From: a virus | Direction: 5' to 3' (one strand) | Virus record (IMG/VR): IMGVR_UViG_3300036846_001209 | Location: 1-64,000 of that record | DNA length: 64,000 nucleotides | Part shown: piece after piece, positions 45,448 to 64,000 of the stretch | Numbering within the stretch: position 1 is the first letter of the stretch | How the letters are laid out: the number at the start of each line of letters is the position of its first letter | Notes under the pieces: generated by a model | Database searches by the model: none | What the model saw: the letters and a program-made list of their open reading frames with translations, nothing else | Told to the model about the DNA's origin: nothing | Made by a program: the position numbers and the translations under genes

Positions 45448-46356
45448 TCACGCGAAGCCTTTCAGCAACGAGCACAACCACGTGCCGCTGGTCGCGAAGT
45501 AGCTCGCCACCAATAAATCGACGCTGCCCGCGGGCGTCGACAGCACGCCCGCCGAGCCGCCCACCCAGCGGAAGTTGGACGGCCACATCATGGTGCGCGA
45601 GCCCGTGCCGTCCTGCGCGAGGCGCACGTTCACGGTCTGCCCGTCGATCTGGTTGGAGAACACTGGGGCGGCGCTGACGCTGGCCGACAGGATCACCGAG
45701 AAGACGTTGGAGAGCGAGCAGTCGATCGGCATCGAGGCGGCGGCGAAACTGAGCGTCTGCGTCTGGGTGGCCGCCGAGCCGCCCTGCACCACCAGCTTCG
45801 ACGTCACGAAGCCGCCGATCGCGAGGTTGCCGCCGAGTGCGAGCGCACCACCGACGGTGAGGGTGTCGGTGGCGGCGACGTAGGTCAGCCCAGCATCGCC
45901 CGCGAGGCCGCCGGCGGCGTTGAACTGCACCTGACCGGGCAGGCCGCCCGCCGCGGCGGCGATGGTGTTGGCGAGGCGCCCGCCGTTGATCGGGTCGATG
46001 ACCACGGTGGCGGCGTTGCCGGGCGGGATGGTTGCGACGCCGCCGCCGCTGGCCGAGCCGAAGCTGACGGCGGGCGCGCCGGCCGGCGAGGCGTTGGCGA
46101 CGAAGAAGAAGCGGCCGACCCCGGCTGGGGTCTGGTAGGTGACCGGACTCGCCGGCGTGCCGGTGATCACGAGATTGGCGGCGCCGTACTGCGCCAGGGT
46201 GAGCGCGACGGTCCCCGAGGCGCCCGCGGCGTTCAGCGTGACGAGTCCGCCGAGCGCGGTGTCGATCGCCCCCATGTTGGCGTTCACCGGCCCGTCCCAG
46301 ATGCCGATGTCGGTGTTGTTGGCGGGCTGGACGAGTTGGAGGTTCGGCGTCGCCAT
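45448..46356 (-). CDS. tail fibre/needle-like structural protein
   Basis: MATPNLQLVQP…GIWDGPVNANMGAID N-terminus; C-terminal LAQDGTGSRTM.WP..FRW.GG..LST…VDL domain. Confidence 0.65.
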   Translation of the reverse strand: MATPNLQLVQPANNTDIGIWDGPVNANMGAIDTALGGLVTLNAAGASGTVALTLAQYGAANLVITGTPASPVTYQTPAGVGRFFFVANASPAGAPAVSFGSASGGGVATIPPGNAATVVIDPINGGRLANTIAAAAGGLPGQVQFNAAGGLAGDAGLTYVAATDTLTVGGALALGGNLAIGGFVTSKLVVQGGSAATQTQTLSFAAASMPIDCSLSNVFSVILSASVSAAPVFSNQIDGQTVNVRLAQDGTGSRTMMWPSNFRWVGGSAGVLSTPAGSVDLLVASYFATSGTWLCSLLKGFA

Positions 46357-48224
46357 CAGATCGCCCTTCCTGCCACCGCCAGCGCCTTCGCGACCGTGGT
46401 GTCGTCGAGGCCCAGCAGCGGCTTGGTCGCCGTGCGGCTGGCGCGCCCTTCGCGCTCGGCTCGAGCCATCAGCCGGTCGGTGAGGTCGATCACCTTGCCG
46501 CCGTCGGCGTAGCCCTGCGCAAGCTGAGTGCGCCCTTCGGCCCGCGCCCACTTCTGCTGCCCGTCCTGCATCGCGCCGTCCTCCCAGTTCAGGAAGTCCT
46601 GCACGGTGCGCATGTGCGCCAGGAACGGGTTGGCGGCGATCTGGGTGGGCGAAACGTAGTCGGAGAGCGGCTTGCCCGCGACGGATGGGTCGTCGCGCAG
46701 AGCTCGCAGCAGCCGCGGCCCACCGCCCTCGCCGAGGAAGTGGATGGTGTAGACGTTGCGCGAGGTCAGCGGCATGCCGAGGTTCTTCACTAGGCCAGCC
46801 TCGTAGTCGACGTAGTTGCGCCCCAACTGCGCGGTCAGGTTCTGCCCCTCGTCGGTCTGCCGGTACTGCTTGATCTGGTCGTCGGTCATGCCCGCCGCCT
46901 GGCGGGGATAGTCGCGCTTGTACTGCCCGACCCAGGTGTCGTTGGTCATCTGGTAGGGGCCTTGGGCGGAGGATCCTGGGTTCTTCTGACCGCCCAGACC
47001 GCCCTCGTGGTACATGATCTGGTTGGCGATGGTGTCGTTGTCGGTATCGCCGACGCCGCCCGCAGGCGGTGCACCTGGGGCGCCCGCCCCTCCCTGATCC
47101 TGCTGATCCTGCGCATCTTGGGCCGCCTGCTCGGCTGGCGACATCGGCTGCATGCCGCCGAACGTGCCGACCGCTGGCAGGCCTGCGGGCGGGGGCTTGC
47201 TGAGCGCCCTGTCGATCAGGCCTGGAGCGGCGGGCGCCGCGCCGCCGCCTGGTTGATAAGGCGTCCAACGGTTTGCGGGTGGGTGAGCCTTCGGCATGAG
47301 GCCCTCGGCCACATGCTCGCCGATCACCGTGCCAGCCCACGGACCGACGAACGGGATGTGCGCACCGACCGCGTGGCCGACGCCAGCGCCGATCGCGCCG
47401 CGGACGGCTCGGCCGACGAGCGGCATCGAGCCGACCTTGCGGATCACGCCCACACCTGCGCGCCCCGCCAGCCCGGCGCCCTTGGCGGCGAGCATCGTCG
47501 GGTCGGCCAGTTGGGCGACGCGCCCGGCCTTGGCGGCGGCGCCGAGGACATCGCCCACCACGCCTGGCGCCTTGGCCGCCAGCCCCTCGCCGCCAATCGG
47601 GAGGGTGGCGACCGTGGCGATGTCGGAGCCGATCGCGAACGGGTCGTGCTTCAGGGTGCGCTTGAAGCCTTCCACGGACCCGTAGCGGTCCGTGTACATC
47701 TTGCCGATGGCGTTGACCGCCTGCTGATGTTGCGCCTGGGCGGCGGCATTGCCCTGGTCGATCAGGCCCGCCTTCGACGCCAAGCCGGTGGCGATCGCCT
47801 TTGCGCCGGTCCAGTCCTCGCCCCAGTGCCAGGGCGCCAGCGGCGCCAGGGTCTGGTGCAGCTGATTGACGAAGCTGGTGGGCGCGTTCGCGAGCGCGCC
47901 GTGCGCGACCGAGCTCCACGACAGGTTTTCCGGCTTCGGCGGTGGCGGTGGCGGCGCACCACTGGGGCGCGGGCCTGGGCGCGGCGGCGGCGCGCGGCGC
48001 GGCATCGGCGTGCGCTCGCCTTTGAGGCGCGGCGGTCCTGGCGGCCGCGCAGGCGGCGGCGCCATCGGGTCGGCGTTGGGCGGCGGCGGACCCATCGCGT
48101 CCCAGAGCGGATCGCTGTCCGAGGCGGTGGCGGGGGCGCCGCCATCCGGCGCGGGCGCAGGCGCGGCCCCAGGATCTGGCGGCGCATCGCCCATCGCATC
48201 CCAGAGCGGATCGGCGTCGGCCAT
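46356..48224 (-). CDS. internal virion/ejection protein with lytic transglycosylase-like domain
   Basis: HEGG..KNPGSSAQGPYQMTNDTW…YTIHFLG.GG…ANP; N-terminal DPLWDAMG x2; C-terminal YADGG. Confidence 0.7.
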   Translation of the reverse strand: MADADPLWDAMGDAPPDPGAAPAPAPDGGAPATASDSDPLWDAMGPPPPNADPMAPPPARPPGPPRLKGERTPMPRRAPPPRPGPRPSGAPPPPPPKPENLSWSSVAHGALANAPTSFVNQLHQTLAPLAPWHWGEDWTGAKAIATGLASKAGLIDQGNAAAQAQHQQAVNAIGKMYTDRYGSVEGFKRTLKHDPFAIGSDIATVATLPIGGEGLAAKAPGVVGDVLGAAAKAGRVAQLADPTMLAAKGAGLAGRAGVGVIRKVGSMPLVGRAVRGAIGAGVGHAVGAHIPFVGPWAGTVIGEHVAEGLMPKAHPPANRWTPYQPGGGAAPAAPGLIDRALSKPPPAGLPAVGTFGGMQPMSPAEQAAQDAQDQQDQGGAGAPGAPPAGGVGDTDNDTIANQIMYHEGGLGGQKNPGSSAQGPYQMTNDTWVGQYKRDYPRQAAGMTDDQIKQYRQTDEGQNLTAQLGRNYVDYEAGLVKNLGMPLTSRNVYTIHFLGEGGGPRLLRALRDDPSVAGKPLSDYVSPTQIAANPFLAHMRTVQDFLNWEDGAMQDGQQKWARAEGRTQLAQGYADGGKVIDLTDRLMARAEREGRASRTATKPLLGLDDTTVAKALAVAGRAI

Positions 48225-51200
48225 CAGAACCAGTACCGGGCGCTGCCGGTGCCGTAGCCAGCGCGGGTCTGGGTCCCGCGCGTGAGGCCCTGCTCGATGT
48301 CACGCCGGCGGTCGGGGTGCGCCATCAGGATCTCGGCGGCGCTCTGGCCGCCCGCGCCGCGCGTCATCATGCGCGCGAGCGACTTGGCGTCGGCGTCGTA
48401 CATGCCGCCCGTCTCGTTCTGGAAGGCCTGCACCACCCCGATGTGGGTGCCGTACTTGGCGACGTAGGCCTGTTCGAACTGCGGGAAGTCGATGCCGCGC
48501 TGGGTCTGCGTCATCAGGTTGGCGAGGATCTCGTTGGCCGCAGCCTTGTTGGCGGTGCTGCCGCCAGGCAGCACGGAGGCGATGGCTCGAGCCGCATCGT
48601 AGGAGTGCTGGTCGTTGGCGTGCGCCATCGTCTGGGACTGGAGGCTCTGGATCTTCGAGATGATCGCGGCAGGCGCCGTGGCTTGGTTGATATCGGGGTC
48701 GTCGCTGCCAGCCACCATCCGGTGGAAGGTCTGGTAGAGGTTCAGCAGGTTCTGGCGCTGCTCGTAGCCCTGGCCCATCGCGCCGAGGCCGCCTGCCGGG
48801 ATCGCGTTGACCGCCTGCGCGAGGAGCCGCGTCTGCTGCTGGGCGGCGGTCAGGGCGAGCGGATCTCCGTAGGCGGTTTCGGCCTGCTTGGCGTTGGTGG
48901 CTTCCTCCCCGGCCAGTTGCGGGTTCATCCCGATCATCATGCTGTTCTTCATCGCCGCGCCCTGGGCGCCGCTGACGTCGAGCGGCGCGTTCGCCGGGCC
49001 GAGCTTGGCGACGGAGGCGTCGCTGACCGACGATGGTGCGAAGCTGTAGGTGCCGCTCTTGTAGTCGGCATGGACCGGCCCGCGCGCATACCCGGCTGCA
49101 GTCGGAGTGTCGGGCGCCACCGGAGCGTTGGCGCCAGCATGGCCGCCCTGGATGGTCTGCGCGTTCGCGAGTCCTGGCGCGGCCGCGCCGCCGCCGCCGC
49201 CAGCCCCCGGCATCAGGTCGGTGCCATAGCCCCAGTGCGCGTAGTGGCCGCTCGAGGTCATGTGCGTGCGCTGGGAATCGATGCTGCCGTCGGGATTGAA
49301 GAGAGCTCCCGGGATCTCGGTCATGCCCTGGCGCATAGCTGGCGGCAGCGTCTCGTAGCGGGTCTGGGCGGCGGTCGCCTGCCGTTCGGCGATCTCAGCT
49401 TCCTGCTGCTGCTGGGCCATGTAGGTCTTGCCGTAGGCGCCGAGGCCTTGGCTGAGCGCGAACAGCGGGTGGACGGTGGGCGTCGCGCCGATGGCGCCGA
49501 TCATCGACAGGAACGGCATCAGCCGGTCGCGGTCCCAGTGCGGATGGGCCTGGTCAGGCGCGCCAGCCGCCTCGCCGAGCAGATGCAGCGGCGCGCCGAC
49601 GATGTCGCGCAGGGCGCCGCCGAAACCGCCACGACGCCCACCACCGCTCGGGGCGCTCGCAGGTGGAGCACTGTCAGGTGAGGCAGGCGCCGGGGCGGAG
49701 GTGTCGGCTGGCGCGAAGCCAGCGTCGTGGGTCACCGGCCTGACCGTGGGGTCGTCCGTCGGGTCAGGTGGCGGCGGGTCGCCGCCGTCAGCGTAGCCGA
49801 CCCGCCCGCCGGTCTTCACCGGCACGCCGAAGAAAGGGAGCGCGAACTTGGCGATGTTGACGAGATCGCTGCCCATGCCGATCGCCGACCCGAGGCCGCC
49901 GCCGCCGCCCTGACCAGGCGTCGGGGCAGTGACCAGTTTGGGATGCTGGGTTTCGGCGGTCGGGATGTTCAGCCCAGGTCCCTGCGGCTTGTAGGGGTCG
50001 TCGTTCTGCGGATTGGACGGGTCGGACGGACCGCCCATCTGCCGCGCGGCGCGGGCGAAGCCGCCGCGGGCAGCGGCGAGCGTGACGGGCGGCGCGAGGT
50101 CGCTGGCATCGACGAGGCGCGGATCCCGGGACTGGAAGGCCTCGCTCTGGATGACCGGCGCGTCGAGCGCGGGGGACGCGGCGGCGACCGGCGGCCTGCT
50201 CGACTGGAAGGCCTCGCTCTGCATCACCGGCCCCGACTGGAAGGCCTCGCTCGAGATCGGCGGCGCAAGCTGACGGGTCGGCGTCTCAAGCTGGTTCGCG
50301 GCCGCGACGTCCTCGCCGACCGCACGCCGTTGGCTCGGCTCGGTGAGCCAGCGGCCGACGCCACTCGCCTCGTCGCCGAGCCAGTTGCCGAAGCGCTGGA
50401 AGATGTTCGGGTTGTAGGCGCGCATGTTGGCGGGCGCGAAACCGCTTTGCAGATTTGAAACATCGCCGACGTCCATCGGCGTGACCGAGGCGACGTTGCC
50501 TGGCAGGCCGGTGGCGTCCGCGAGGTTCGGCGAGGCCGCGCCGGGCGCCGAAGCGGTCGGGACCTGGCTGGGACTGACGCCAGCGGCCTGCGCGGCCTGC
50601 GCGTGATGATGGGCGAGCGCGATGTGGTGGGCTGCCCGCATCGCATGCTCGATGCCGCTACCCCAGTAACCCTCATCACCGCTGGCCGTCTGCGGGCCGG
50701 GGCGGGCGGCGGGCCCCGCCGCAGCAGGTGCGCCGCCTGGCGTCGGGATCTGCGCGCCCATCGCCGCACCAGCCTCGGCGCCGCGCGCGGGCGCCAGATA
50801 GGCGTTCGCGTCGGTCACGTACTTCGGCGGCGGCGGCTTCCACCCCGGCGGATGCGGGGTCAGCCACGGCTGCCGCTGAAGCATGTTGGCGGCCGAACCC
50901 ATAGCCGCCAGATCGTAAGCGCCAGCGGTCTGCGCCGCGTTGGTCGTCGCGCGCTGCATGGCCTGATGGGCGGCGACGTCCGCGTCCACCAGTTGATGGG
51001 CGCCGTGGTAGACGACGGGCGCGGCCGCCACGCCCATCCGAAGGCCTCGAGCGACGTAGGGCGCGGTGCTGCGGATGGTCTGCACGCCCGGCACGGCGCC
51101 AAGCACTGAGCCCCGCGCGCCCACACCCAGATCGGGGGGCGCGGCGGCGGCGCGCTTGGCAGCCACGACTGCGGGATGTTGCGCCGCAGGCGTATTGAAA

Positions 51201-52885
51201 AACCTGGGATCGGCGTCCGCCGTGAGCGCCGGACCCAGATGGACCGGGGGCCGCTCGTGCGAAAGCGTCGCGACACGGTTGCGCGCTTCCTGTTCCGCGA
51301 CGTCCCGGCGCCGTTGTTCAAGAGCAGCGGTCAGCCCGCCGGGCGCGCGCGCGACACGCCCACCATTGGCGAAGGGCACGTCTCCACCTCCATCGTCACC
51401 GCCGTGGTGGCCCATCAGCTTGTCGAAGACTTCGTGGCCGAAGTGGTAGTCCTTGCTCAGGCCCTCGGCGTCGTCGGCGAAAGAGGCCGCCTCGTGGATG
51501 TCGGAGCCCAGGTTGCTCTGCGACGGCGTCGGCGCCTTGGCGACCTGTAGTTGGCCGACCGGCAGATTGGCGGCCGGGACGTAGCTCGAGCCGCCGTGCG
51601 GCGCGGCGCTGGCGCTGCTGCCGTAGAGGCCGGGGCCGCCCTGGCCCGAGAACGGGCCATACATCTGGGCTTGGGACTCCAGCAGTTGCTGGATGACCAT
51701 CGGGTTGGTGCCCGCCGGGTACATGCCCCAGCCAGACATGCCGCTGCCGCCGCCGTCTGCGAACCCGGCGCGGCCGCCGACGGCGCGAGCTCGGCGCTCG
51801 GGCTCGTCGCCGTAGTTGTCGTTGGCCGCCAGCGCGAAGCCGGCCGCGGCGGCGGTCGCCCGGCCATAGTCGACTGTCAGGAAGCCGCTGGGGTGGGTGT
51901 GGACGGCTTCGGGGTGCAGCCGCGCCATCTCCTGGGCGGAGAAGCCGATGCGGGTGGTCGGGTCGCCGCGGTAGCGGAAGCGGTAGATGTTGGCGCCGTC
52001 GAAGCCCTTGCCGACCGGGATCATGTCCTCCTTGAGGCGCTCGTCGGAGAAGATCGACTGCGGCTGCTGGGCGGTGGTGGTCGAGCCCGAGAGAGCTCCG
52101 GTCCCCTCGGCGATGTTCGCGAGGAACTGCGCCGTCTGGAACGGGTAGGACTGCTGCTGCAGGAACTGGTTGTAGACCGCGGTCTTGCCCGCCTGCTGGG
52201 TCTGCTGCTCGACCTGGCCCGCCCCGAGTTGGGCCTGGGCGCCCGCCAGCGCGGCGCTCTGCGCTCCCGTCCCGAGTCCGGCCAGCGCCTCGCCGGTCTG
52301 CTGCACGGCAGCGCGGTTCGCCTGCTCGGCGCCCAGGCCGACGCCCTGCTGCTGCTGCGCGGTCGCCAGCGCCTGCTGGTAGGCGTCCGAGAGGATCCCC
52401 GAGTAGGTCTGCCCGGCGGCCAGTTGCTGCTGCCCGGCCAGCACCGCCGCGGCGATGCCCGAGCGGTCGCCGCCATAGGCGCCCGAGGTGATCGCGTTGC
52501 CCAGCTGACCGGCCTGCTGCTGCTGGTTCTGCTGGTTGATCAGCGCCTCGGTCGAGCCGAGTACGCTGGAGACGTACGGGTTGTAGTACTGGTTGATCGC
52601 GCCCGCATCGATCGCCGACGGATTCACCGCCTGGGATCCCGCGAGCGCGAAGCCCGTCGCCGCGCCGAAGTACGGCTGCGCCATGCCGCTGGCGGCGTTG
52701 GTATTGGCGACGCCCGCCTGCTGCGTGCCGGTCAGTGGTGCGACGAACGCCGAGGGGTCGGTCGAGTACTGCTGGAACGGGGTCTGAGCGACGTCCTGGG
52801 CGGTCTGGTTAACGGAGTTATATCGCGCCAATACTTCGGGCGGTATACTTACTTGACTAGTTGAAGTCGAAGTCTTGCCGCCCAT
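48224..52885 (-). CDS. large DNA-ejection/internal virion protein with S74-like intramolecular chaperone domain
   Basis: MGGKTSTSTSQV.IP N-terminus, Q/A-rich region, SDERLKEDM…IYRFRY…GFSAQE…VDY and paired AxGG motifs. Confidence 0.75.
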   Translation of the reverse strand: MGGKTSTSTSQVSIPPEVLARYNSVNQTAQDVAQTPFQQYSTDPSAFVAPLTGTQQAGVANTNAASGMAQPYFGAATGFALAGSQAVNPSAIDAGAINQYYNPYVSSVLGSTEALINQQNQQQQAGQLGNAITSGAYGGDRSGIAAAVLAGQQQLAAGQTYSGILSDAYQQALATAQQQQGVGLGAEQANRAAVQQTGEALAGLGTGAQSAALAGAQAQLGAGQVEQQTQQAGKTAVYNQFLQQQSYPFQTAQFLANIAEGTGALSGSTTTAQQPQSIFSDERLKEDMIPVGKGFDGANIYRFRYRGDPTTRIGFSAQEMARLHPEAVHTHPSGFLTVDYGRATAAAAGFALAANDNYGDEPERRARAVGGRAGFADGGGSGMSGWGMYPAGTNPMVIQQLLESQAQMYGPFSGQGGPGLYGSSASAAPHGGSSYVPAANLPVGQLQVAKAPTPSQSNLGSDIHEAASFADDAEGLSKDYHFGHEVFDKLMGHHGGDDGGGDVPFANGGRVARAPGGLTAALEQRRRDVAEQEARNRVATLSHERPPVHLGPALTADADPRFFNTPAAQHPAVVAAKRAAAAPPDLGVGARGSVLGAVPGVQTIRSTAPYVARGLRMGVAAAPVVYHGAHQLVDADVAAHQAMQRATTNAAQTAGAYDLAAMGSAANMLQRQPWLTPHPPGWKPPPPKYVTDANAYLAPARGAEAGAAMGAQIPTPGGAPAAAGPAARPGPQTASGDEGYWGSGIEHAMRAAHHIALAHHHAQAAQAAGVSPSQVPTASAPGAASPNLADATGLPGNVASVTPMDVGDVSNLQSGFAPANMRAYNPNIFQRFGNWLGDEASGVGRWLTEPSQRRAVGEDVAAANQLETPTRQLAPPISSEAFQSGPVMQSEAFQSSRPPVAAASPALDAPVIQSEAFQSRDPRLVDASDLAPPVTLAAARGGFARAARQMGGPSDPSNPQNDDPYKPQGPGLNIPTAETQHPKLVTAPTPGQGGGGGLGSAIGMGSDLVNIAKFALPFFGVPVKTGGRVGYADGGDPPPPDPTDDPTVRPVTHDAGFAPADTSAPAPASPDSAPPASAPSGGGRRGGFGGALRDIVGAPLHLLGEAAGAPDQAHPHWDRDRLMPFLSMIGAIGATPTVHPLFALSQGLGAYGKTYMAQQQQEAEIAERQATAAQTRYETLPPAMRQGMTEIPGALFNPDGSIDSQRTHMTSSGHYAHWGYGTDLMPGAGGGGGAAAPGLANAQTIQGGHAGANAPVAPDTPTAAGYARGPVHADYKSGTYSFAPSSVSDASVAKLGPANAPLDVSGAQGAAMKNSMMIGMNPQLAGEEATNAKQAETAYGDPLALTAAQQQTRLLAQAVNAIPAGGLGAMGQGYEQRQNLLNLYQTFHRMVAGSDDPDINQATAPAAIISKIQSLQSQTMAHANDQHSYDAARAIASVLPGGSTANKAAANEILANLMTQTQRGIDFPQFEQAYVAKYGTHIGVVQAFQNETGGMYDADAKSLARMMTRGAGGQSAAEILMAHPDRRRDIEQGLTRGTQTRAGYGTGSARYWF

Positions 52886-53425
52886 CTACGCGGCTCCCGC
52901 CTGCGCGCCGCGCGACCCGGGCCAATAGATCCAGTAGGCCCCAGCCGGCTTACCCAGGACGCGCTGATAGAGGCGCACCTTAGCCGCCGTGCGGTGATTT
53001 GACAGCACCCCGATGGAAAGCGGCAGGCCGAGGTTGTCCGCGACGTCCATCGAGAACTCCGCCAGGCGTGCTGCGCGCCCACCACGTGCGCCGCGGAAGG
53101 CGGGGTGGACGAAGATCGCCCGCTCCTCGATATGCTCGGCGCGGCTGTACCAGACGGTGCCGACGCGCAGCAGCACGGCGCCCTCGAGCGGCCGAGATCC
53201 TGGGGCGCCGATGACCCCGCAGATGCCCTTGTCGAGGTTCAGCGCCGCCCAGACGTCGCGCAGCACGAGGATCGGGTCGTGGGCCACGAACTCGTTCTCG
53301 ACGCAGCCCATGAGCGCGAGCTCCATCACAGAATCTACTTCATCCGGGGTGGCTGTCCGAACATGTGGGCGTTCCACTTTGGTGATTTCGTCATGTTCGC
53401 TGGCGAGGTTAAGGTCATCAGCCAT
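52886..53425 (-). CDS. GNAT acetyltransferase
   Basis: VRTAT.DE…WYS…IFVHPAFRG.RGGRA.RL; GGGAG RBS. Confidence 0.75.
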   Translation of the reverse strand: MADDLNLASEHDEITKVERPHVRTATPDEVDSVMELALMGCVENEFVAHDPILVLRDVWAALNLDKGICGVIGAPGSRPLEGAVLLRVGTVWYSRAEHIEERAIFVHPAFRGARGGRAARLAEFSMDVADNLGLPLSIGVLSNHRTAAKVRLYQRVLGKPAGAYWIYWPGSRGAQAGAA

Positions 53426-53945
53426 GCTGATCTCCCACGCCAAACTGCTTGAAATCGTCAACTACAACCCCGAGACGGGCGTGTTCACCGCGAGGGTAGC
53501 CAGAGATCGCGTCAGGGTCGGCGACCGTCTCGGGACACCCCGACCTCGCGGCTATCTCTATTGCATGATCTTTGGGAGGAACTACGCCCTGCATCGGCTG
53601 GCGTGGTTCTACATGACCGGCAGATGGCCGGTGGGCCAGATCGATCACCGGAACCGCAAGAAGGCCGACAACCGCTGGCGCAACCTGCGTGATGCGACAG
53701 GAAGTCAGAACACGATCAACTGCATCTTGCCGCCGAATAAAGCAGGCTTCAGAGGCGTCTCGATCCACCCGAGAAGGAACGGTCAGCCGCGATATCACGC
53801 CATGCTCGCACGAACTTATCTCGGCGCTTTTGACACCGCCGAGGAGGCCTATGCCGCCTACGTCCGCGCTGCCCAGGCTCGTCATGGTGAGTTCGTTGAG
53901 CACCTCAGTCCTTCGCCGGTCCTGGCAGCCCTTTCAGGGTGCTGA
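53424..53945 (+). mobile_element. HNH-AP2 homing endonuclease gene, antisense within the tail operon
   Basis: YNPETGVF…HRLAWFYMTG.WP..QIDH.N….DNR..NLR…GFRGV…YLG.FDT.EEA..AY; lower GC3. Confidence 0.85.
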
Positions 53946-56883
53946 TGTGCTTCGCCCTAGACTTCAGGACGAACTGATCCAGCACCTTGCAGCCGACCTC
54001 GGGGTCGCCGTTGCCCGCGGCGCGGACCTGGGCGGGCGACAGCACATACTCGCCGCCAGCGGCGACGATCGGCACGCCCTCATCGCTGCCGCCATCGGTC
54101 GCCCGCCCGCCGCGGGAGTTCTGCAGCGCCTCGCCGTAGGGACCGGCGCCCTGGCCGTAGGGGCCGCCTGCCTGGCCGTAGGGCGCGCCGCCGAACAGGC
54201 GCCGCATCACCCGGAACCCGGCCTGGGTGTTGCCCTCGCCGTGCGCGCTGACGACGTCCGCGGGCAGCACGTAAGATCCCGACGGCACATGCATGTTGAG
54301 ATGGTCCGTCCGCCCACTGACATGCGAGTGGATCGGCCCGACATGCAGGTGGTGGCGGCGGTGGTCGAGGTTGGAGTGGAAGAGCAGCGGGCCGCCGTGA
54401 GCGCGCCCAGGCGGCTCTAGTCCTCCTCCTCCTGATCCGGGTGCTTCGGGAGGTGGCTGATTATCGCCTGGATCTGGTCGAACGACAGGTTGGCGAAGTG
54501 CGCGTGCAGCGGGTCGTCGGCGTCGATCATCACCGCCTGCTCGTGCCTTTTCGATCTCGTTGGCGACTTGGTGTGCGGCTTCTTCATAACTGATGTCCGC
54601 CGACGGGCGGCCTCCGAGGTCGCCATAGAGGCGCTTCTCATAGTACCACAGGACTGCCTGAATATCAGCAGTCGAGATGTCGTGTCCGGCCTTCTTGAGT
54701 AACTGTCTCGCCTTCTCGGTTGTCTTTAGCATGAAGGTCCGGTCGGTGGCGCGGAACGGCTGATCCTCGAGGTTCTCGAAAGCGGCCTTGTGGATGGTGT
54801 TGGCGGCCTTCTCGATCTCGGCGCGCCGCGGATTGAAGCCGGGGGGATGCTTGAAGCCGCGCTCGGCGTAGGCGTCGCGGTAGGGGACGGTGGCGGCGAG
54901 CGCCTCGTCGTCGCTCATCATGTGCGCGGGCAGGTTCCGGCGTTCGTGGTTGGTGACCAGTTGCTTGAAGCGGTCGAGGCCTTCGCGGGTCGGCTCGGGG
55001 ATCAGGGTGCCGCGGTAGCGGTTGAAGGTCCGCGACCACCAGCGGTCCATCGTCAGGTAGCCGTGGGCGCCCATCAGGTTGGCGTAGAACGCGCCCAGCT
55101 TCGGGCCGAAGAGCAGCGCCGCCATCGGCATCTTGGTGTCGGCCTGGTAGGCGGTGGAGAACGGCAGGCCCGCCTTCTTGGCGGCTTTCGCCAGTTCGCC
55201 GACGGTCGATTCCTGCATGAGGTGCTTGCGCATCCCGGCCGGACCCATCGTGTCGAACAGGCGCTGGATGTTGGAGACGTTCTGGTCGACCGAGGCCTGC
55301 CGCTGGTGGCCGCGGGAGGTGGTGAACTGGCCGGTGTTGCGGAAGTTGCCGTAGAGGTCGAGCGCTTGGCGGAAGTTCGGCACCACCTTCTGCCCGTCCG
55401 AGGTGACCGCGATCAGCGACGTCAGCAGGTGCCGCGACTCCTTCGGCGAGATGGTGCGCCCGTCCGGCAGCGTCAGCCCAGGTGCACCGCGCTTGCGGCT
55501 GAGCTCGGGGTGGATGGCGGCGAAGCGGTCGAGCGCCTTCTTGAACTTGAACGAGTACCAGCCGGCGCCGGACTTCTTCGGGGTCTTGAGCTCGTGGGCG
55601 ACCTCCTTCGCCATCCACGGCGCGATGCGGTCGCCTGCCTCCTCGGAGGTGTCGTGCCGATCGATCATCCCGGCTTCCGCGCGCTGCCGCGCCTCGAGCG
55701 CCGCGGCGACGTTGCGGACGGAGTGCTTCTGGTTGGGGTCGAGGCCCTGTGCCGCGAGCGTATCCTTGCGCTGGCGCAGCGGCAGCGAGGTGCCCCACTC
55801 CTCGTTGGTGCCGTCGATCGGGTTCGGCGTGAAGCGTGGCTCGGTGGGCATCGGGCGCTCGGCGCCAAGCATCGGCCCGCGCGCGGCCCGCATCGCGACG
55901 GCGACCGGATTGCGCTCGGCCATGAAGTCGGCGCCCAGGTTCGGCAGCGGAGCGGCCGCAGGCGGCGCGGGCGCAGGGGCTACAGGCTCGGGCGCGGCTT
56001 CCGGCATGGGTAGCGGCTCGCCAAGCCCGCCGCCCTCCTGGCGCGCTCTGCGGGCCGCGCCGCCCGCGGCGAACAACTGATCCTCGCGTCGGCCGTAGAC
56101 CGGCCTGTGCGCCAGCATCACCGGCCCCGACTGCAGCACCCGCTGGGCGCTGACGATCGGCTCCTCGGTCTTGCGGTCGTAGAAGTAGGAGTGCCGCTCG
56201 GGGTCCATGCCGACCTGAGCCCACTCGGGATCGTTGAGGTGCTGGCGGATCAGTTGGTGGATTGCGGCGGGATCTTGTTTCACCAACTTGCCATGTACCG
56301 CCGCGAAGGGCGACTTGGCCTCTCCGCTGGCGATCTTCAGCGCCGTCTTCTGGGGCATACCGAACTGAGCATCGGTGATGTGCGCCGCAGGCTCGTAGGA
56401 GAGCGGCTTCATGGTCTTGCGGTCGTGGACGACCGGCGCCCAGACGCCGTGGTTGGTGTAGGCCGGGATGTCCAGCCTGAGCGACACCGGGTGGCCCTCG
56501 GGATACTCGTGCAGTTTGCCGATCCGGTCGTGCTTATTGGACGAGAGCGCCCGCTCCAGATCGGCGCGGCTCGCTAGCGGCGGCGGCTCGGCGTAGGGGC
56601 GCACCGGCTTGAACGCCCGCACCAGGGCGCCGTAGTCGGCCCCGCCGATCTGACCGGCGGCTAACTGCTTGGCGCCCTCGGTTAGTTGCGGCACTCGCTT
56701 GGAGGCCTCGCGCGGGGTCATCGCCAGCCGGTCGGGCGCGAAACTGCCGCCACCGTCCTGGCGGCTCTGGCGCGCAGCCCGCATCGCGGCGGCGATCGCC
56801 TGGTCGCGCGGATGGCCCGCGTGGATCATCTCGGCGATGTTGCGCCCGACGACAGGCTCCGATGAACCATGCTCAAGGGGCAT
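53905..56883 (-). CDS. multidomain putative virion protein with HhH-glycosylase-like central domain
   Basis: N-terminal MPLEHG…NIAEMIHAGHPRDQAIAAAM peptide; LRLDIPAY…GMDPERHSYFYD domain; WY…GPKLGAFYANLMG…LTMDRW…DIQAVLW domain; C-terminal SGRTD…GSYVLPADVVS…GGEYVL domain. Confidence 0.7.
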   Translation of the reverse strand: MPLEHGSSEPVVGRNIAEMIHAGHPRDQAIAAAMRAARQSRQDGGGSFAPDRLAMTPREASKRVPQLTEGAKQLAAGQIGGADYGALVRAFKPVRPYAEPPPLASRADLERALSSNKHDRIGKLHEYPEGHPVSLRLDIPAYTNHGVWAPVVHDRKTMKPLSYEPAAHITDAQFGMPQKTALKIASGEAKSPFAAVHGKLVKQDPAAIHQLIRQHLNDPEWAQVGMDPERHSYFYDRKTEEPIVSAQRVLQSGPVMLAHRPVYGRREDQLFAAGGAARRARQEGGGLGEPLPMPEAAPEPVAPAPAPPAAAPLPNLGADFMAERNPVAVAMRAARGPMLGAERPMPTEPRFTPNPIDGTNEEWGTSLPLRQRKDTLAAQGLDPNQKHSVRNVAAALEARQRAEAGMIDRHDTSEEAGDRIAPWMAKEVAHELKTPKKSGAGWYSFKFKKALDRFAAIHPELSRKRGAPGLTLPDGRTISPKESRHLLTSLIAVTSDGQKVVPNFRQALDLYGNFRNTGQFTTSRGHQRQASVDQNVSNIQRLFDTMGPAGMRKHLMQESTVGELAKAAKKAGLPFSTAYQADTKMPMAALLFGPKLGAFYANLMGAHGYLTMDRWWSRTFNRYRGTLIPEPTREGLDRFKQLVTNHERRNLPAHMMSDDEALAATVPYRDAYAERGFKHPPGFNPRRAEIEKAANTIHKAAFENLEDQPFRATDRTFMLKTTEKARQLLKKAGHDISTADIQAVLWYYEKRLYGDLGGRPSADISYEEAAHQVANEIEKARAGGDDRRRRPAARALRQPVVRPDPGDNQPPPEAPGSGGGGLEPPGRAHGGPLLFHSNLDHRRHHLHVGPIHSHVSGRTDHLNMHVPSGSYVLPADVVSAHGEGNTQAGFRVMRRLFGGAPYGQAGGPYGQGAGPYGEALQNSRGGRATDGGSDEGVPIVAAGGEYVLSPAQVRAAGNGDPEVGCKVLDQFVLKSRAKHISTLKGLPGPAKD
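54417..54587 (-). CDS. nested alternate-frame small ORF (56 aa, or 37 aa from 54530)
   Basis: MIDADDPLHAHFANLSFDQIQAIISHLPKHPDQEEED uses nearly all G/C-ending codons, while the host frame turns to A/T-ending codons. Confidence 0.5.
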   Translation of the reverse strand: MKKPHTKSPTRSKRHEQAVMIDADDPLHAHFANLSFDQIQAIISHLPKHPDQEEED

Positions 56884-57328
56884 AGCTGGCGAGCCTTCCG
56901 TTCGAACCAAGGTTCCTTGCTCGGATGCGCGTGACTAGGACTCGGCGCTCTTCGATCTCCTCGCTCGACAGCGGCCGCCGCTGCCCGCTTTTGGACTTCA
57001 TCATCCTCGCGACCGCGATGGCATCCCGCGCTCGATCAGCCTTCACTGTGAGATAGGGCAGGAAGGCCTCAAGGATGTCGGCCGCATGTCGAGCGTGATA
57101 CGTGCAGGTGTAGATCGGCTTGCCTGATCGGGTCAGGCGCCGCTCCGTTCTCACATGGCCGCCGAAGACTTCAGCGAAACGCTCGACCGGCGCCCGATCA
57201 CACATCGTGACGCTGATCGTCATCATCACGCTGTTTACGCTCGTGAAGTGGTGCCGGGCACTGATCGAGCCTTCACCGTCGAAGAGGCCAGCGAGGTAGG
57301 CGATCATCTCTGCATGCGCGAGGGGCAT
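56873..57328 (-). mobile_element. free-standing LAGLIDADG homing endonuclease
   Basis: IAYLAGLFDGEGSI…LPYLTVK; flanked by an 8-bp direct repeat ATGCCCCT. Confidence 0.85.
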
Positions 57329-59817: not shown

Positions 59818-60600
59818 TCATGTCCGCGTCGGGGTGGCGACCGGCGACGGAGCTCGCGATGTCCAGGCGTCGGCTTCGAAGCGCTTGCGGTACTCCTCCT
59901 TGTCCACCGCGGCCAGCAGCGTGCCGTACTGCGTCTCGTAGGAGAGCGCCATCTGCGGGTCGTCGGACTGGCGCCCGAAGTCGCGCTGATAGGCGCTGAC
60001 GTAGATCATGCACGCCATCACCAGAAGGTCCGGCAGCCAAGTTGAGATCCACGTGGTCCCGACATTGGCCTGGGCGGCAGTGGCGTAGGTGGTGAGCGAC
60101 GGCGCGCGCATGGTGCCGTAGAGCGAGACTGGATAAGCGATATCGGGCGGCGGTCCGAACAGGATCATGTTGCCGGTGAGGCCGCCGGTCGCGAAGTCGC
60201 CACCGCCCATCGCGAACACCGTCGGCGCCCCCGGCGCCGAGTCGCCCGGCCAGCAGACGTTGAGGTAGGGAATCGAGACGGGCAGCACCGACCTCCACCC
60301 ACTTTTGCCGCCGATGTTGATCTCCACCATCTGGATGACCACGAAGTCGGCGGGGGGCACCGACAGCCACTGATAACCCGGCGTCAGCGTGTAGCCGGCG
60401 CGGGCCGTCTGCGTCGCCAGGAGCTCGAGATCGCGTTGAATCCGCTGTTCTGCGTAGTTCAGCATCTGCGGGATCAGCGCGGTGAAGTTTGGGTCGACGC
60501 CCTGCAGCACACCGCTCACCATCTGCGTCTGGTAGGGCGCCAGCAGCGCCACCTGGGTGACAAGGCCGTTGTAGGTGAGGGCGGTCGGGGCGCCAGCCAT
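59818..60600 (-). CDS. head-tail adaptor protein
   Basis: TY..L…AEQRI.RDL…GPPPD.AY…TTWIS…PDLL. Confidence 0.7.
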   Translation of the reverse strand: MAGAPTALTYNGLVTQVALLAPYQTQMVSGVLQGVDPNFTALIPQMLNYAEQRIQRDLELLATQTARAGYTLTPGYQWLSVPPADFVVIQMVEINIGGKSGWRSVLPVSIPYLNVCWPGDSAPGAPTVFAMGGGDFATGGLTGNMILFGPPPDIAYPVSLYGTMRAPSLTTYATAAQANVGTTWISTWLPDLLVMACMIYVSAYQRDFGRQSDDPQMALSYETQYGTLLAAVDKEEYRKRFEADAWTSRAPSPVATPTRT

Positions 60601-60601
60601 C

Positions 60602-60934
60602 TCAGAGGCTCGGGATCGGCGCGTCGGGCGGCGCCGTGGGCGGGACCAGCGGGTCTTGCGAGGGGCGGCTGACAAACAGCGGCGCTTGGCCGATGGCCGC
60701 CGGCATCTCCACCCCGTCGAACGGGTTGATCTCGGGCAACGCCGCGCCTGCCGATCCGAAGTAGCCGGGGGCGACGCCGGCATCCTGCTCCAGCGCGCGC
60801 ATCAGGTTGGAGAACGTCGCGTAGGCAAAGGCCACTGAGAGCGCCTGCTGCGGCGCGGTGATGGTGGTGCGCAGGATGTCCAGCGCCTCACGCGCCCGCA
60901 CGCCCCTGCCGTTCAGTTCTCGCGGATCGATCAC
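60602..60934 (-). CDS. hypothetical protein (possible fibre chaperone)
   Basis: AGGAGG RBS plus GTG overlapping the fibre stop codon. Confidence 0.55.
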   Translation of the reverse strand: MIDPRELNGRGVRAREALDILRTTITAPQQALSVAFAYATFSNLMRALEQDAGVAPGYFGSAGAALPEINPFDGVEMPAAIGQAPLFVSRPSQDPLVPPTAPPDAPIPSL

Positions 60935-63900
60935 ATCGGTCCTCCTGTCGACATCACCCACCAGTGGCCGCCGGGCGCAGCGGCGCTGGCGTTGCCGACC
61001 CACTTGAGCCGCACGACGGTCTGCTGACCACCCTGGCCGATGTTGATGGTCGGCGTCGGCGCCTTCACCGTCGTCGGGTCCCACTGCACGATCATGCCGC
61101 CCGCGATGGTCGAGCCGGGGGTCAGGAAGAGGTCGATGTCGACGATCAGGCCCGCCCCGAGCGGCACGAGGCCGAGCACGGTGTTGTTCGCCGAGACGGT
61201 GCAGTAGACGTTCGACTGGCCGAGGTAGGTGATGCCGATGGTGAACGGGGTGCTCGCCGCGGTCACGCCGAACCGCGGCGGCTGCGTATACTGCGCACCA
61301 CTCTTGTAGGAGAACGAGCCGGGAGCGCCCTCCCCAGGGCGGATACCTTGCCCCTGGATGCCGCCCGGCACCGCGTAGGGGTTGTCCATCCGGCTGATCA
61401 AGCCGACCTTGCCGTAGCCGCCAAGCTGGCACTGGTCGAGCGCGCCGACGCCCCAGAACACGTCGAAGTCGATGACCATGTGGGTGAGGCCGCCATCGGC
61501 GATGCCGGCGCTCCAGTAGCCGAAGCCGTCGATCGCGTAGGTCGCCGCGTTCTGCGGGTTGCCGTAGTTGTCGACGATCTCCCAGAGCGGCTGGGTGATC
61601 GAGGCGACGCCGGCCTGCATCTCCTCGCTGGGGATCGCGCCGAGCGTCTGGTTGATCACGTAGACGCCGACGCCGCCCGTGGTGTTGGCGCTCATCGTCT
61701 GCGACGCCACCAAGAGGTTGCCCAGGCCGCTCAGCGCGTAGGTGCCGACGCCGCCGGTGCCGGTGCTGGTCAGGCTGGGGACGATGGTCGCCTGCGCGGT
61801 GAGGCCCGCCGGGCCGCCGGTCACCGGCACGTTGACGGTCTGGCCGACGCCCAGCACGCCGCTCGCCATCGCCGTCACGGTGAGGACGGCGCCGACGGCC
61901 CCATGACCATCATCCACGGTGGCGGTGAACGCCGCCGCGAGGCCGCCGCCGCTGAGCGGCCACGCCGCGGTCATCGCTTCGCTCGCGACAGTCACCGCGG
62001 CGCTGTAGTTGTAGAGGCCGATGCCGCCGGTTGCCCCGCTAAGCTGCGCACCCAGGATGATGTTGGCTGGAACGCCAGCGCCCTGGATCAGTTGGCCGGG
62101 GACCAGCGCGCCCGAGGTGATCGCGGTGACGTTCAACTGCTGGCTGGTGTTCATCGAGCCAGTGAAAGCGCAGTGGCCGCTAAGTTGCGCTGAGCCGCTG
62201 ACGTTGTAGGTCCCCGCTCCGCCCGGCGGGCCGCTGATCTGGCTAAGGATGACGCTGCCGGCGTTCACCTTGCCGCCGGTCAGCGGCGAGCCTGGGCGGA
62301 CAGAACCTGCAGCCACCGCCGTCACGGTCAGGATGCTGCCCGGCGTGACGCCGCCCGCGCTGCCGTCGTCCACATAGCCGGTGAACCCGGCGCCCTCGGC
62401 GGCGATCTGAGCCGGCGGGGTGGTCGGCAGGCCCGCGCCGCCGAGATACTGGCCCACCGCCAGGACGCCGCTCGCGACCGCAGTGACGGTCAGCAGGGCG
62501 CCGCTGATCGAGCCGGTGAAGTCCGCACCGATGGCTTGGGAGAACGCCAGCGTGTACTGGCCGACCGCGCCAGCCGCGCCCGAGGTCTGCGCGACGAGGA
62601 AGTTGAAGCCGGAAACGGAAGCGCCGAGCAAGATCGGGTTGGTGGGCGCGCCGAAGATGTTCGCCGTCGTGCCGCTCGACTGCAAGTACCAGCCGCTGGC
62701 GCCGGGGTGCTGGTTCTGCACCTTGCCCGCCAGCGCCATCGCGATCCCCGAGCCATCGGGGAAGATGCCCTGGCTGGGCAGCATCACCCAATCGCCCGCG
62801 TTGAGCGGCTGGGCGCTCTGCAGCAGGTTGAAGCCCTTCGCGATGGTCGTGCCCCAGCCGCTCGCGTTGCGCTGGAACTGGCCGAAGTGGGTGACCGCGC
62901 CCCAGTTCGGCGGCGCGCCGGCCGAGGCGCGGAATATCTTGTACCAGTTCGCGCCCGCGCGCAGGAAACCCGGCGTAACGGTCAATGTGTTGGCGGTGTT
63001 GGACTGGATGGTGCAGGGGTTGGAGGCCTGCCACACGCCGGGCGCAAGTATCCAGACGCCGCAGCCGGCCCACTGGTTAGGCGTCCAGCCGGGGCTCGGC
63101 GTGAACGAGATCACCGTCGTCGTGGTCGAGGCGTCGCTCAATATCCAGGGCGGCCCGCCGTCGTCGGCCAGCATCACGGTGGTGTAGTTGTCGAGCGCGT
63201 TGGCGCTCCCCACCGCCGGGTTGTTGACCGCCAGCAGCGTCTGCGGCGTCCAATGCATGTTGGGCGACCAGCCGGGGTAGTAGCCGCCGGTCGTCCAGTT
63301 CGTCACGCTGGACTGGTGGCTGGTGTCGATCATCCCGACCGAGGCTTCGGAGCGGCAGCCGATCACCACGCACGACTCGGTGGCGACCTGGGCGGCGTAG
63401 AAGTCGGCGCCGCCCAGGTGGACCTGGGAGCGCATCGGGACCTGATAGTAGACCTGGGACAGCGTCTCGTTCTCGGTCAGCATCGTGTAGGCGCTGAACG
63501 AGCCGCCGAACGCCCCGACGCCGTAGCGCGGGCAGGCCTGGGTCTGACCGCCGAAGAAGGTGCCGGCGATGGCGTTGGCGCCGCCGAAGGTGAAGCCGTC
63601 GTCGCAGCCCTGCACCCAGCACCCGAAGAAGAGTTGGGTGTCGCCCTGCGCGGCGCCGCCTTCAGGCGAGACGGCGACACCGCACTTGCTGGTGGCGTAG
63701 TTACCGCTGATCGACCAGTCGTGCAGCGTGTTGTTCTCGACGTTGAGGCCGGGCGCGCCGGGGGTGTGCGAGAGGCTGACGAGGTAGTTGCTGACGCCAC
63801 CCAACGACGAGTCGGCGACAGCGAGGCTTTTGACCGTGCTGAAAGCCAGCGTGTTGAACTTCACCGCTGGGCCGACGTTGGTGGTCGCCGTAGCGTTGCC

Positions 63901-64000
63901 CTTCCAGATGAGGGTGGTGCCGCGCTTGCTGGCGAACAGCAGATCGAGCCCGTCGCCGTTCACGATCAGCATCTGGTTGAGGTACATCACCCCGCGCGGA
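60931..64000 (-). CDS. tail fibre/spike protein, 5' truncated by window
   Basis: >1019 aa, G/A/T/V-rich; beta-helix-like N-terminal part and FTG…LTVTA..SG.L..GQ…GG.G.Y repeats. Confidence 0.7.
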   Translation of the reverse strand, partial: PRGVMYLNQMLIVNGDGLDLLFASKRGTTLIWKGNATATTNVGPAVKFNTLAFSTVKSLAVADSSLGGVSNYLVSLSHTPGAPGLNVENNTLHDWSISGNYATSKCGVAVSPEGGAAQGDTQLFFGCWVQGCDDGFTFGGANAIAGTFFGGQTQACPRYGVGAFGGSFSAYTMLTENETLSQVYYQVPMRSQVHLGGADFYAAQVATESCVVIGCRSEASVGMIDTSHQSSVTNWTTGGYYPGWSPNMHWTPQTLLAVNNPAVGSANALDNYTTVMLADDGGPPWILSDASTTTTVISFTPSPGWTPNQWAGCGVWILAPGVWQASNPCTIQSNTANTLTVTPGFLRAGANWYKIFRASAGAPPNWGAVTHFGQFQRNASGWGTTIAKGFNLLQSAQPLNAGDWVMLPSQGIFPDGSGIAMALAGKVQNQHPGASGWYLQSSGTTANIFGAPTNPILLGASVSGFNFLVAQTSGAAGAVGQYTLAFSQAIGADFTGSISGALLTVTAVASGVLAVGQYLGGAGLPTTPPAQIAAEGAGFTGYVDDGSAGGVTPGSILTVTAVAAGSVRPGSPLTGGKVNAGSVILSQISGPPGGAGTYNVSGSAQLSGHCAFTGSMNTSQQLNVTAITSGALVPGQLIQGAGVPANIILGAQLSGATGGIGLYNYSAAVTVASEAMTAAWPLSGGGLAAAFTATVDDGHGAVGAVLTVTAMASGVLGVGQTVNVPVTGGPAGLTAQATIVPSLTSTGTGGVGTYALSGLGNLLVASQTMSANTTGGVGVYVINQTLGAIPSEEMQAGVASITQPLWEIVDNYGNPQNAATYAIDGFGYWSAGIADGGLTHMVIDFDVFWGVGALDQCQLGGYGKVGLISRMDNPYAVPGGIQGQGIRPGEGAPGSFSYKSGAQYTQPPRFGVTAASTPFTIGITYLGQSNVYCTVSANNTVLGLVPLGAGLIVDIDLFLTPGSTIAGGMIVQWDPTTVKAPTPTINIGQGGQQTVVRLKWVGNASAAAPGGHWWVMSTGGPM

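Follow-up and report, generated by a model that had tools for sequence, protein, structure and literature searches.

A conserved A-x-G-G joint at module boundaries of putative ejection proteins in an uncultured short-tailed phage

Introduction

The DNA considered here, a window of 64,000 nucleotides, makes up the first 64 kb of a virus record of 72,714 bases (IMG/VR record IMGVR_UViG_3300036846_001209) that is classed as linear, with an estimated completeness of 100%. Downstream of a nozzle gene it carries three consecutive minus-strand genes, P0003, P0002 and P0001, with a GNAT-like gene between the first two. Their products appear to be the large internal or ejection proteins of an uncultured short-tailed phage, built as chains of modules, and the modules are separated by a short motif, a basic or aromatic residue followed by Ala-x-Gly-Gly, that is called a joint in what follows. 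The reading favoured here sees the motif as a conserved joint in a chassis that carries cargo, among proteins that are packed in the head and ejected; taken whole, with cleavage at the joints included, this reading has about an even chance of being correct.

Cargo exchange at the joints of the P0003 family

The clearest case is P0003. Judged from its sequence, this protein is a small carrier with two sockets, the first loaded and the second empty, because 79 of the 88 BLAST alignment ends that fall inside it lie at residues 40–59 or 800–849 (44 of them at 800–849) and because of the way in which the same joints are occupied in its relatives. Alignment of the family gives a constant order of parts, namely an N-terminal peptide (the N-peptide, ..AR..[RK]AxGG), a short variable linker, repeat A (LHxGPIHSxVAGRTDHLPMHVPSGSYVIPADIIS..GEGNTxAGF), a PYG-rich stretch, A..GG, and repeat B (VPIVAAGGEYV...LPGPKKD). 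The A..GG columns ahead of VPIVAAGGEYV are invariant or nearly so. In P0003 itself, repeat A reads HxGPIHSxVxGRTDHLxMHVPSGSYVLPADVVS... and repeat B reads VPIVAAGGEYVLSP...LPGPAKD. A previous examination of the letters alone (the sequence-only reading) had started P0003 at the ATG at position 56883, and this start is borne out, since the same MPL N-peptide begins the gene in 70 of 80 related loci; most of these genes encode 190–240 amino acids. A word-index search with the N-peptide retrieved 4 proteins among 17 candidates.

What the carrier looks like when bare can be seen in P0005, a protein of 193 amino acids from the deposited phage genome MW202675.1, in which the N-peptide is followed directly by the C-domain. 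There, MKRGG runs straight into KIKVHKGPIHS; in the window, 786 residues stand between RQDGG and PLLFHSNL..HVGPIHS. Among six close relatives (P0003 of the window, P0009, P0011, L002, L004 and L005) the carrier parts are 67–83% identical and the cargo is different. The cargo begins directly after ..GG and ends at a ..GG that lies immediately, or 9–17 residues, before a conserved FHSNL; in the window, L002 and P0009, homology resumes directly after RAHGG (GG/PLLFHSNL). P0009 agrees with P0003 in domain 1 as far as FAAGG, but beyond the paired joint the cargo of the two differs. The idea that the motifs stand at module boundaries, with cargo swapped exactly there, was put forward from the letters alone, and for the P0003 family it is upheld both by these six relatives and by the BLAST ends.

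Insertions at the first joint can be long and composite. Nine genes of the 80 loci have 113–1059 additional residues between N-peptide and repeat A, and each module so added ends in a joint. The protein of locus L057 has five such modules, ending in ARASGG, AKAGG, ARASGG, ARADGG and AHASGG, and one of them is an InPase domain (PF18823, E value 4e-51). When joint occupancy was scored in the 150 best representatives together with P0008–P0011, joint 1 held more than 60 amino acids in 30 of the 45 scorable proteins and joint 2 more than 80 in 19 of 105, and a single protein had both loaded. P0009 and P0010 hold cargo at joint 2 as well. Joint-2 cargo is flanked by GG in 16 listed proteins of the 19; the left-hand motif is mostly [RKHM]AxGG and the right-hand one mostly [FMKH]AxGG.

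A module of about 50 amino acids (GLYANIHAKQERI...GSKGAPT..AFKQSARTAKAGG) recurs between joints in L006, L045, L053, L057, L063 and others; L057 has two copies, and the module has no Pfam match.

Long stretches of common DNA were also looked for at the joints, and none beyond about 9 nucleotides was found (GACGGCGGC). Homologous recombination alone therefore does not explain why the joints are conserved, and so it is the protein sequence that is under selection.

Frequency of the motif

All of the motif strings that had been picked out from the letters alone are present at their places in the translations. Two forms of the motif were counted, a bare form, A.GG, and a strict form, [FYRKH]A.GG, and chance was estimated from 5000 composition-preserving shuffles of P0001–P0003 as well as from shuffles inside 50-residue blocks. 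The bare form is only weakly overrepresented, with 12 occurrences against 7.2 expected (277 of the 5000 shuffles reach 12), and A.GG is enriched about 1.8-fold in control proteins too. Sharper forms fare differently: [FY]A.GG occurs 5 times against 0.36 expected, and [FYRKH][AQ].GG 12 times against 1.05, with neither count reached in any of the 5000 shuffles or in the block shuffles. One of those 12 matches, YQPGG in P0001, had been overlooked in the sequence-only reading.

Because the sharper motif was defined post hoc from the data, it was tested on independent sequences. At least 581 related stretches in IMG/VR passed tblastn, and 80 of these loci were fetched. In 89 non-redundant relatives of P0001–P0003 from the 80 loci, the strict motif occurs 203 times against 24.6 in shuffles, an 8.2-fold excess, whereas in 147 nozzle-, adaptor-, GNAT- and fibre-like open reading frames (ORFs) from the same loci it occurs 7 times against 7.8 (0.9-fold). 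By class, the enrichment is 5.2-fold in 11 P0001-like proteins, 6.2-fold in 33 P0002-like proteins and 14.7-fold in 45 P0003-like proteins, the counts in the last class being mostly two conserved joints that recur in related sequences and so reflecting conservation and not independent events. At least one strict motif is present in every P0002-like protein (33/33). Across the other 65 candidate genes of the window, the strict motif was found 5 times against 2.3 expected, and 38 of 500 shuffles reach 5.

The motif is often doubled. Consecutive GG pairs spaced 6–12 residues apart number 138 in the P0001- and P0002-like relatives, against 60.0 in shuffles, and the paired joint has the consensus aRGG-hh-G-YAxGG (38 examples listed). 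Position x is variable, and Gly precedes the aromatic residue in 39 of 81 cases.

Breadth and structure of the carrier family

The carrier C-terminal part is what was found in the 581 or more stretches mentioned above, and a profile of repeat B reaches much further, matching 2638 clusters at E ≤ 0.001 and 1512 at E ≤ 1e-10 in a collection of 1.84 billion representatives. The best 150 of these matches are all carrier-family proteins, of 97–1500 amino acids, and in all 150 the match is C-terminal. Most of them contain two matched stretches, as repeat A resembles repeat B; against repeat A of P0003 the repeat B profile gives a domain E of 0.02.

An AlphaFold2 model of a carrier relative of 207 amino acids is poor, with a predicted local distance difference test score (pLDDT) of 58. 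The N-peptide is predicted there as a helix hairpin (pLDDT 71–82), both joints fall in the two stretches with pLDDT below 50, and this monomer model shows disorder in GPIHSxVAGRTDHLPMHV, where conservation of the carrier is highest. No fold match for the carrier was found, Foldseek giving nothing better than E 5.9 against the PDB, and sequence searches of P0002, P0003 and the joint peptide against PDB chains gave nothing meaningful. P0003 has no curated Pfam match, and at E up to 10 nothing in Pfam matches its C-domain, the joint regions or the C-terminus of lambda gpH. The ESM Atlas returned unnamed viral clusters only; the nearest named candidate, crAss cargo protein 1 (score 0.84), was at chance level and was rejected.

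Near the C-termini of two P0002-like proteins (L073 and L045), a stretch reading ADEFVKGMMRQVF..STLSGPAK resembles the carrier tail LDEFVKR.R..TIKTL..LPGPKKD, with E values of 0.07–0.7. It may be a C-terminal tag common to the carrier and to P0002-like proteins.

The cargo of P0003

The two domains loaded in P0003 are unrelated. Cargo domain 1 occurs in other phage proteins and has weak family matches only (phrog_586, E 3.5e-4; Pfam Phage_L5_gp82, E 0.0094, under the cut-off). Cargo domain 2 had been called glycosylase-like from the letters alone, and its predicted structure agrees. The AlphaFold2 model (pLDDT 87.1, predicted template modelling score 0.78) was compared with known structures by VIA-align, where the best match is 3n0u_A (Z 11.1, root-mean-square deviation 4.2, 197 residues aligned). 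Rows 1–23 are all HhH-GPD DNA glycosylases or their structural relatives, with Z from 11.1 to 6.3, after which Z is 5.6 for the first unrelated row; the top rows include 8-oxoguanine glycosylases, endonuclease III, MutY, MagIII and AlkA, along with two queuine salvage enzymes and a phage glycinyltransferase. VIA-align warns that helical models may reach such Z values without relatedness, and the domain is therefore called a fold-level match. Foldseek found nothing for it in the PDB, and Pfam gave no family and no HhH-GPD match. Among its invariant residues, D214 follows K196 by 18 positions (model numbering) in GPKLG...TMDRW, a spacing that may match that in the active site of endonuclease III.

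Homologues of cargo domain 2 were found in 53 long phage proteins with LPD22, ART-PolyVal, LPD38 or LPD39 domains, which are classical polyvalent proteins, and its matches in BFVD are likewise to proteins named ART-PolyVal-like or LPD. Those 53 homologues (65,381 residues) have 10 strict motifs against 11.9 expected, and P0161, which alone among the homologues has carrier repeats, accounts for 3 of the 10. The joint therefore comes with the carrier and not with the cargo; as far as these comparisons go, it is specific to carrier proteins and is not a feature of what they carry.

Joints in P0002 and P0001

P0002 has four paired joints and P0001 has YADGG (Table 1). Residues 1–347 of P0002 match phrog_4287, 'DNA ejection protein' (E 2.7e-15), and phrog_6121 (E 2.9e-18), and make up the entire protein in other phages. 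This part ends in a Peptidase_S74-like domain (PF13884 at residues 280–329, E 2.8e-5, 24.8 bits against a cut-off of 22), whose initial SDERLK presumably holds the catalytic Ser-Lys dyad known from endosialidase work. In many P0002-like proteins (L055, L060, L061, L063, L064, L070 and others) a Peptidase_S74-like segment is present twice, with several hundred residues between the copies, which points to two sites of self-cleavage per chain.

Some breakpoints in these two proteins coincide well with joints. When P0002 is compared with L005 and L002, its closest relatives, homology is lost just past FANGG-RVA-RAPGG, at residues 519 and 524, and a module bounded by the third and fourth pairs recurs in L002 (residues 949–1030) and L003 (931–1035). 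The transglycosylase domain of P0001 sits within a P0002-like protein in other loci, and in the relative P0007 RKSGG/RVD takes the place of YADGG/KVID. Taken over all internal homology ends, though, the agreement is loose. Ends lie within 15 residues of a strict motif in 14 of 102 cases for P0002 (background 0.08) and in 6 of 31 for P0001 (background 0.06). The joints of P0002 and P0001 are conserved features, but the claim that they are swap points, made from the letters alone for all three proteins, holds here only in part.

Table 1. Positions of the genes, domains and joints in the window
Feature	Positions	Strand	Residues	Description
P0003	53905..56883	-	992 amino acids	Carrier with two cargo domains; ATG start at 56883 (MPLEHGSS...)
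N-peptide	56749..56883	-	1–45	Ends in joint 1; phrog_2423, E 3.8e-11
Joint 1, RQDGG		-	41–45	
Cargo domain 1	56074..56748	-	46–270	Weak family matches only
Paired joint FAAGG-AARRA-RQEGG	56029..56073	-	271–285	
Cargo domain 2	54586..55647	-	413–766	All-alpha, predicted DNA-glycosylase-like (HhH-GPD) fold
Joint RAHGG	54391..54405	-	827–831	Right edge of the joint-1 cargo
C-terminal carrier part	53908..54390	-		Repeat A, PYG-rich stretch, joint 2, repeat B
Joint 2, NSRGG-R-ATDGG	54088..54120	-	922–932	Inside the carrier; empty in this phage
GNAT-like gene	52886..53461	-		Real start probably downstream of the TTG at 53461
P0002	48224..52885	-	1553 amino acids	Putative internal virion/ejection protein; four paired joints
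Peptidase_S74-like domain	51851..52048	-	P0002 280–345	Begins SDERLK
Paired joint RAVGG-RAG-FADGG	51749..51787	-	P0002 367–379	About 20 residues past the S74 domain
Paired joint FANGG-RVA-RAPGG	51335..51373	-	P0002 505–517	
Paired joint AARGG-FARAA-RQMGG	50030..50074	-	P0002 938–952	
Paired joint VKTGG-RVG-YADGG	49781..49819	-	P0002 1023–1035	Fits the consensus aRGG-hh-G-YAxGG
P0001	46356..48224	-	622 amino acids	Transglycosylase domain, YADGG, conserved C-terminal tail
Transglycosylase domain	46533-46988	-	P0001 413–564	phrog_4067, E 3.3e-11
YADGG	46497-46511	-	P0001 572–576	After the transglycosylase domain

Comparison with known systems

Tape measure proteins of long-tailed phages offer the closest likeness, and the statement in the sequence-only reading that they contain the same motif proved accurate for T5 pb2 (RAEGG, at 1127) and lambda gpH. 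According to the published account of T5, mass spectrometry places a cut in pb2 after R1127 (PMC10038345, Linares et al. 2023). In the T5 record that arginine is followed by AEGG (VPR/AEGG, the slash marking the cut) and then by MMYPGVSYQMGEHGTEVV, and this is the sole strict motif in the 1219 amino acids of pb2. As is predicted for the joint proteins, pb2 is ejected, and its cut at a strict-motif match splits off a C-terminal piece that bears an enzyme (PMC10038345). T5 differs in being long-tailed, with one joint in its tape measure protein; the phage of the window appears short-tailed, with no tape measure and with 12 joints in three putative head-internal proteins. Two such motifs occur in lambda gpH, YATGG at 779 and, running into GEFVFTKEA, FATGG at 734; both lie just past the region of about 690–710 where, as described in PMC12617516, gpH* ends.

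A further resemblance had been proposed, between the C-terminal domain of P0003 and the module that follows such motifs in tape measure proteins. It survives at the level of the motif, in that the carrier, like the lambda and T5 modules, has an adjacent motif ([RK]AxGG before repeat B), but not as a significant alignment. In hhalign, repeat B aligns with lambda as VPIVAAGGEYV..G.GDL over PAGIVHRGEFV..GVGNL with E 0.012 and a probability of 3.6%, which is not significant; in hmmsearch, the GEFV region of lambda has E 1.3 among 196 targets. T5 has no match to the repeat B profile, and Pfam has no family over the carrier repeats or the GEFV region of lambda and T5.

Polyvalent proteins are a second point of comparison. 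As set out in PMC5512222 (Iyer et al. 2017), these are multi-domain, virion-delivered proteins with shuffled enzyme domains, and cargo domain 2 and InPase are common to both groups. P0003 has its two cargo domains and relatives have up to five modules, InPase included, as would be expected of polyvalent proteins. The classical polyvalent relatives of the cargo are without joints, and the words 'linker', 'glycine' and 'glycosylase' are absent from the main text of that paper. A zincin-like metallopeptidase is proposed there for processing; none was found here in P0001–P0003 or elsewhere in the genome.

The ejection proteins of T7 and P22, as reviewed in PMC8954989, have the same gene position and role. 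Swapping of peptidoglycan hydrolase domains between ejection proteins is already known (PMC8954989), and a swap of this kind is seen here too, between P0001-like and P0002-like proteins. The text of that review mentions no joint motif, with 0 occurrences of 'glycine' and 0 of 'linker'. Finally, in gp38 of T-even phages, conserved glycine-rich motifs, thought to form a core, separate exchangeable hypervariable segments, and exchanges take place in or near the motifs (PMC3157838). The flanking of exchangeable segments by conserved glycine motifs is the likeness to the joints; the variable segments of gp38 are short receptor-binding loops in a protein of the tail-fibre tip (PMC3157838), and its motifs have no sequence relation to the joint.

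What the joints may do

The joint [R/K/H/F/Y]-A-x-G-G, often doubled as aRGG-hh-G-YAxGG, marks module junctions. In the P0003 family it forms two fixed sockets, the first behind the N-peptide and the second separating repeat A from repeat B, at which whole folded domains are inserted, dropped or exchanged from phage to phage. A doubled joint with nothing between its halves looks like an empty socket. In the favoured reading the joints would be exposed and flexible, and their specific sequence would be kept because something recognises them. The preferred candidate is limited proteolysis of the T5 pb2 type, in which the chain would be cut just ahead of the Ala, behind the basic or aromatic residue (R/AxGG), during assembly or after ejection by a host protease or by one not yet identified; the released cargo (the glycosylase-like domain, pieces of P0002) would then act separately, and the Peptidase_S74 domain of P0002 would add a further, self-made cut. 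The T5 cut at R/AEGG and the position of the lambda motifs near the region of cleavage make cutting here plausible but unproven, and by analogy with T5 its likelihood falls a little short of even.

Several observations weigh against this reading. No cleavage product has been observed for this phage, which is a metagenomic record, or for any relative, and family searches of the 72.7-kb genome found no protease family other than Peptidase_S74. A residue before Ala that may be either basic or aromatic is odd for the specificity of a single protease, and cutting both joints would break the smallest carriers, of 190 amino acids, into three short peptides. Lambda gpH is matured to gpH* and gpHC, but its exact cut site and protease are given as unknown in PMC12617516. 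Ten of the 80 loci are without the usual N-peptide, and among these 10 no gene naturally split at a joint was found. The loose match of homology ends to joints in P0002 and P0001 counts on the same side.

The joints might instead act as uncleaved, flexible hinges, or as short docking strands in the portal or core channel, so that bulky cargo could be packed and threaded out module by module, and this is a tentative but serious possibility. The stretches of the carrier model that contain the joints have low confidence and are probably flexible, and the joints bracket insertions between parts that may fold together (N-peptide, repeat A and repeat B). The want of a further protease gene in the genome fits an uncleaved hinge, and disorder of GPIHSxVAGRTDHLPMHV in the monomer model is as expected of a part that binds a partner. 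A hinge, however, has no need of a conserved basic or aromatic residue followed by Ala, and T5 is cut exactly at the motif.

The gp38 precedent leads to a different picture, in which the glycines would form a structural core with the cargo as loops, and exchange would be seen near the motifs because only such products fold. Exchanges in or near the glycine motifs of gp38 (PMC3157838), the excess of motif pairs 6–12 residues apart and the flanking of cargo on both sides would all fit. This arrangement is nevertheless improbable, given that the cargo consists of whole domains of 100–850 amino acids and not of short loops, that single joints such as YADGG in P0001 exist, and that the carrier model, poor as it is, has disordered joints and no packed glycine core.

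The sequence-only reading had suggested that the C-terminal module of P0003 reads or cuts the A-x-G-G motifs, perhaps with the help of the adjacent GNAT. The module and the GNAT-like gene do always accompany joints in this family, and repeat A has conserved His, Asp and Ser residues. The module has turned out, however, to be the conserved carrier itself, interrupted by its own joint and by cargo. Neither its ordered helical parts nor its sequence gives any hint of a protease, the model is poor, no fold or family match was found, and T5 and lambda have the motif without this module; a reader or cutter is very improbable. As for the GNAT-like gene, it is a conserved neighbour, with 71 matching ORFs in the 80 loci and, for the 40 listed, a place immediately downstream of the carrier gene, but nothing ties it to the motif. 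Even its name is a lead only, because all of its GNAT matches in Pfam are below the curated cut-offs (Acetyltransf_7 in 23 of 28 members, best E 2e-4; Acetyltransf_1 in 17 of 28); it also matches phrog_1249 (E 8.5e-4) and, in a PDB profile search, reaches E 0.36.

A composition artefact of low-complexity linkers rich in Gly, Ala and Arg, as the modest excess of bare A.GG in both joint proteins and controls might suggest, has a negligible chance of accounting for a strict motif that is conserved at aligned positions across relatives, exceeds composition-keeping and 50-residue block shuffles eightfold and is at chance level in controls.

Genome setting and neighbouring genes

The window has a guanine plus cytosine (GC) content of about 70%. 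Among the products of its genes are a large terminase, a nozzle-like virion protein and a portal and adaptor of the SU10 type; replication genes are present as well. The phage looks short-tailed, because family searches of the window found no tape measure protein family. Its gene order is repeated in MW202675.1, where the relative of P0002 is annotated as 'internal virion protein D'. The late-operon position of the three genes, after portal, adaptor and nozzle, together with the phrog_4287 match of P0002, is consistent with podophage ejection proteins.

Several other features of the region were noted. Between the nozzle-like gene and P0003, an ORF of 151 amino acids (56873-57328, minus strand) matches phrog_5046, HNH endonuclease (E 1.4e-21), with a Pfam LAGLIDADG_3 match just under the cut-off, and is probably a homing endonuclease within the structural operon. 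An additional ORF of 161 amino acids (53418-53903, minus strand) follows P0003 and precedes the GNAT-like gene; the GC content there is lower (0.66), and just one ORF across the 80 loci is related to this one. The SU10-type adaptor (59818-60783, minus strand) has a paired motif, FAMGGGDFATGG, at residues 190–201, and adaptor relatives as a group have no enrichment of the strict motif. At the end of the window, an ORF of 1019 amino acids (60931-64000, minus strand) extends upstream to about position 65169 of the record, for a total of about 1412 amino acids, and has nearly no family match (phrog_21413, E 1.6e-5). In the early region (13242-16132, minus strand), a C-5 cytosine DNA methylase gene adjoins a PAPS-reductase-like gene.

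Significance

How phages load, arrange and release the proteins that are injected along with their DNA is poorly understood, and the mechanism by which the tape measure proteins of T5 and lambda are cut is still unknown. Mosaic ejection proteins, polyvalent proteins and the cleavage of tape measure proteins are all already in print; in the open-access main texts that were searched, no description was found of the joint motif, of the two-socket carrier family or of a link between the T5 cut and ejection proteins. The joint is specific to the carrier and coincides with the only tape-measure cut site that has been mapped. As a mark of every cargo boundary, it would give a concrete sequence to mutate or to seek in the mass spectra of virions, and a rule for finding injected cargo in metagenomes, as anything that lies between two joints. 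The two tolerant insertion sockets of the carrier would offer a natural scaffold for the delivery of foreign proteins by phage particles.

It is conceivable, if doubtful, that a single joint code, [basic/aromatic]-A-x-G-G, is common to tape measure proteins, in long-tailed phages, and ejection proteins, in short-tailed ones, and is the site of a common maturation cut, R/AxGG as mapped in T5, by a protease of the host or one not yet identified. If so, these polyproteins would release ready-made enzymes (DNA-glycosylase-like, pyrophosphatase and cell-wall-cutting) in the infected cell. In that case the carrier family, which comprises at least 2638 sequence clusters, would amount to a natural chassis for plug-in delivery, with two sockets. 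At the level of a shared motif, the joints tie the ejection proteins of short-tailed phages to tape measure proteins.

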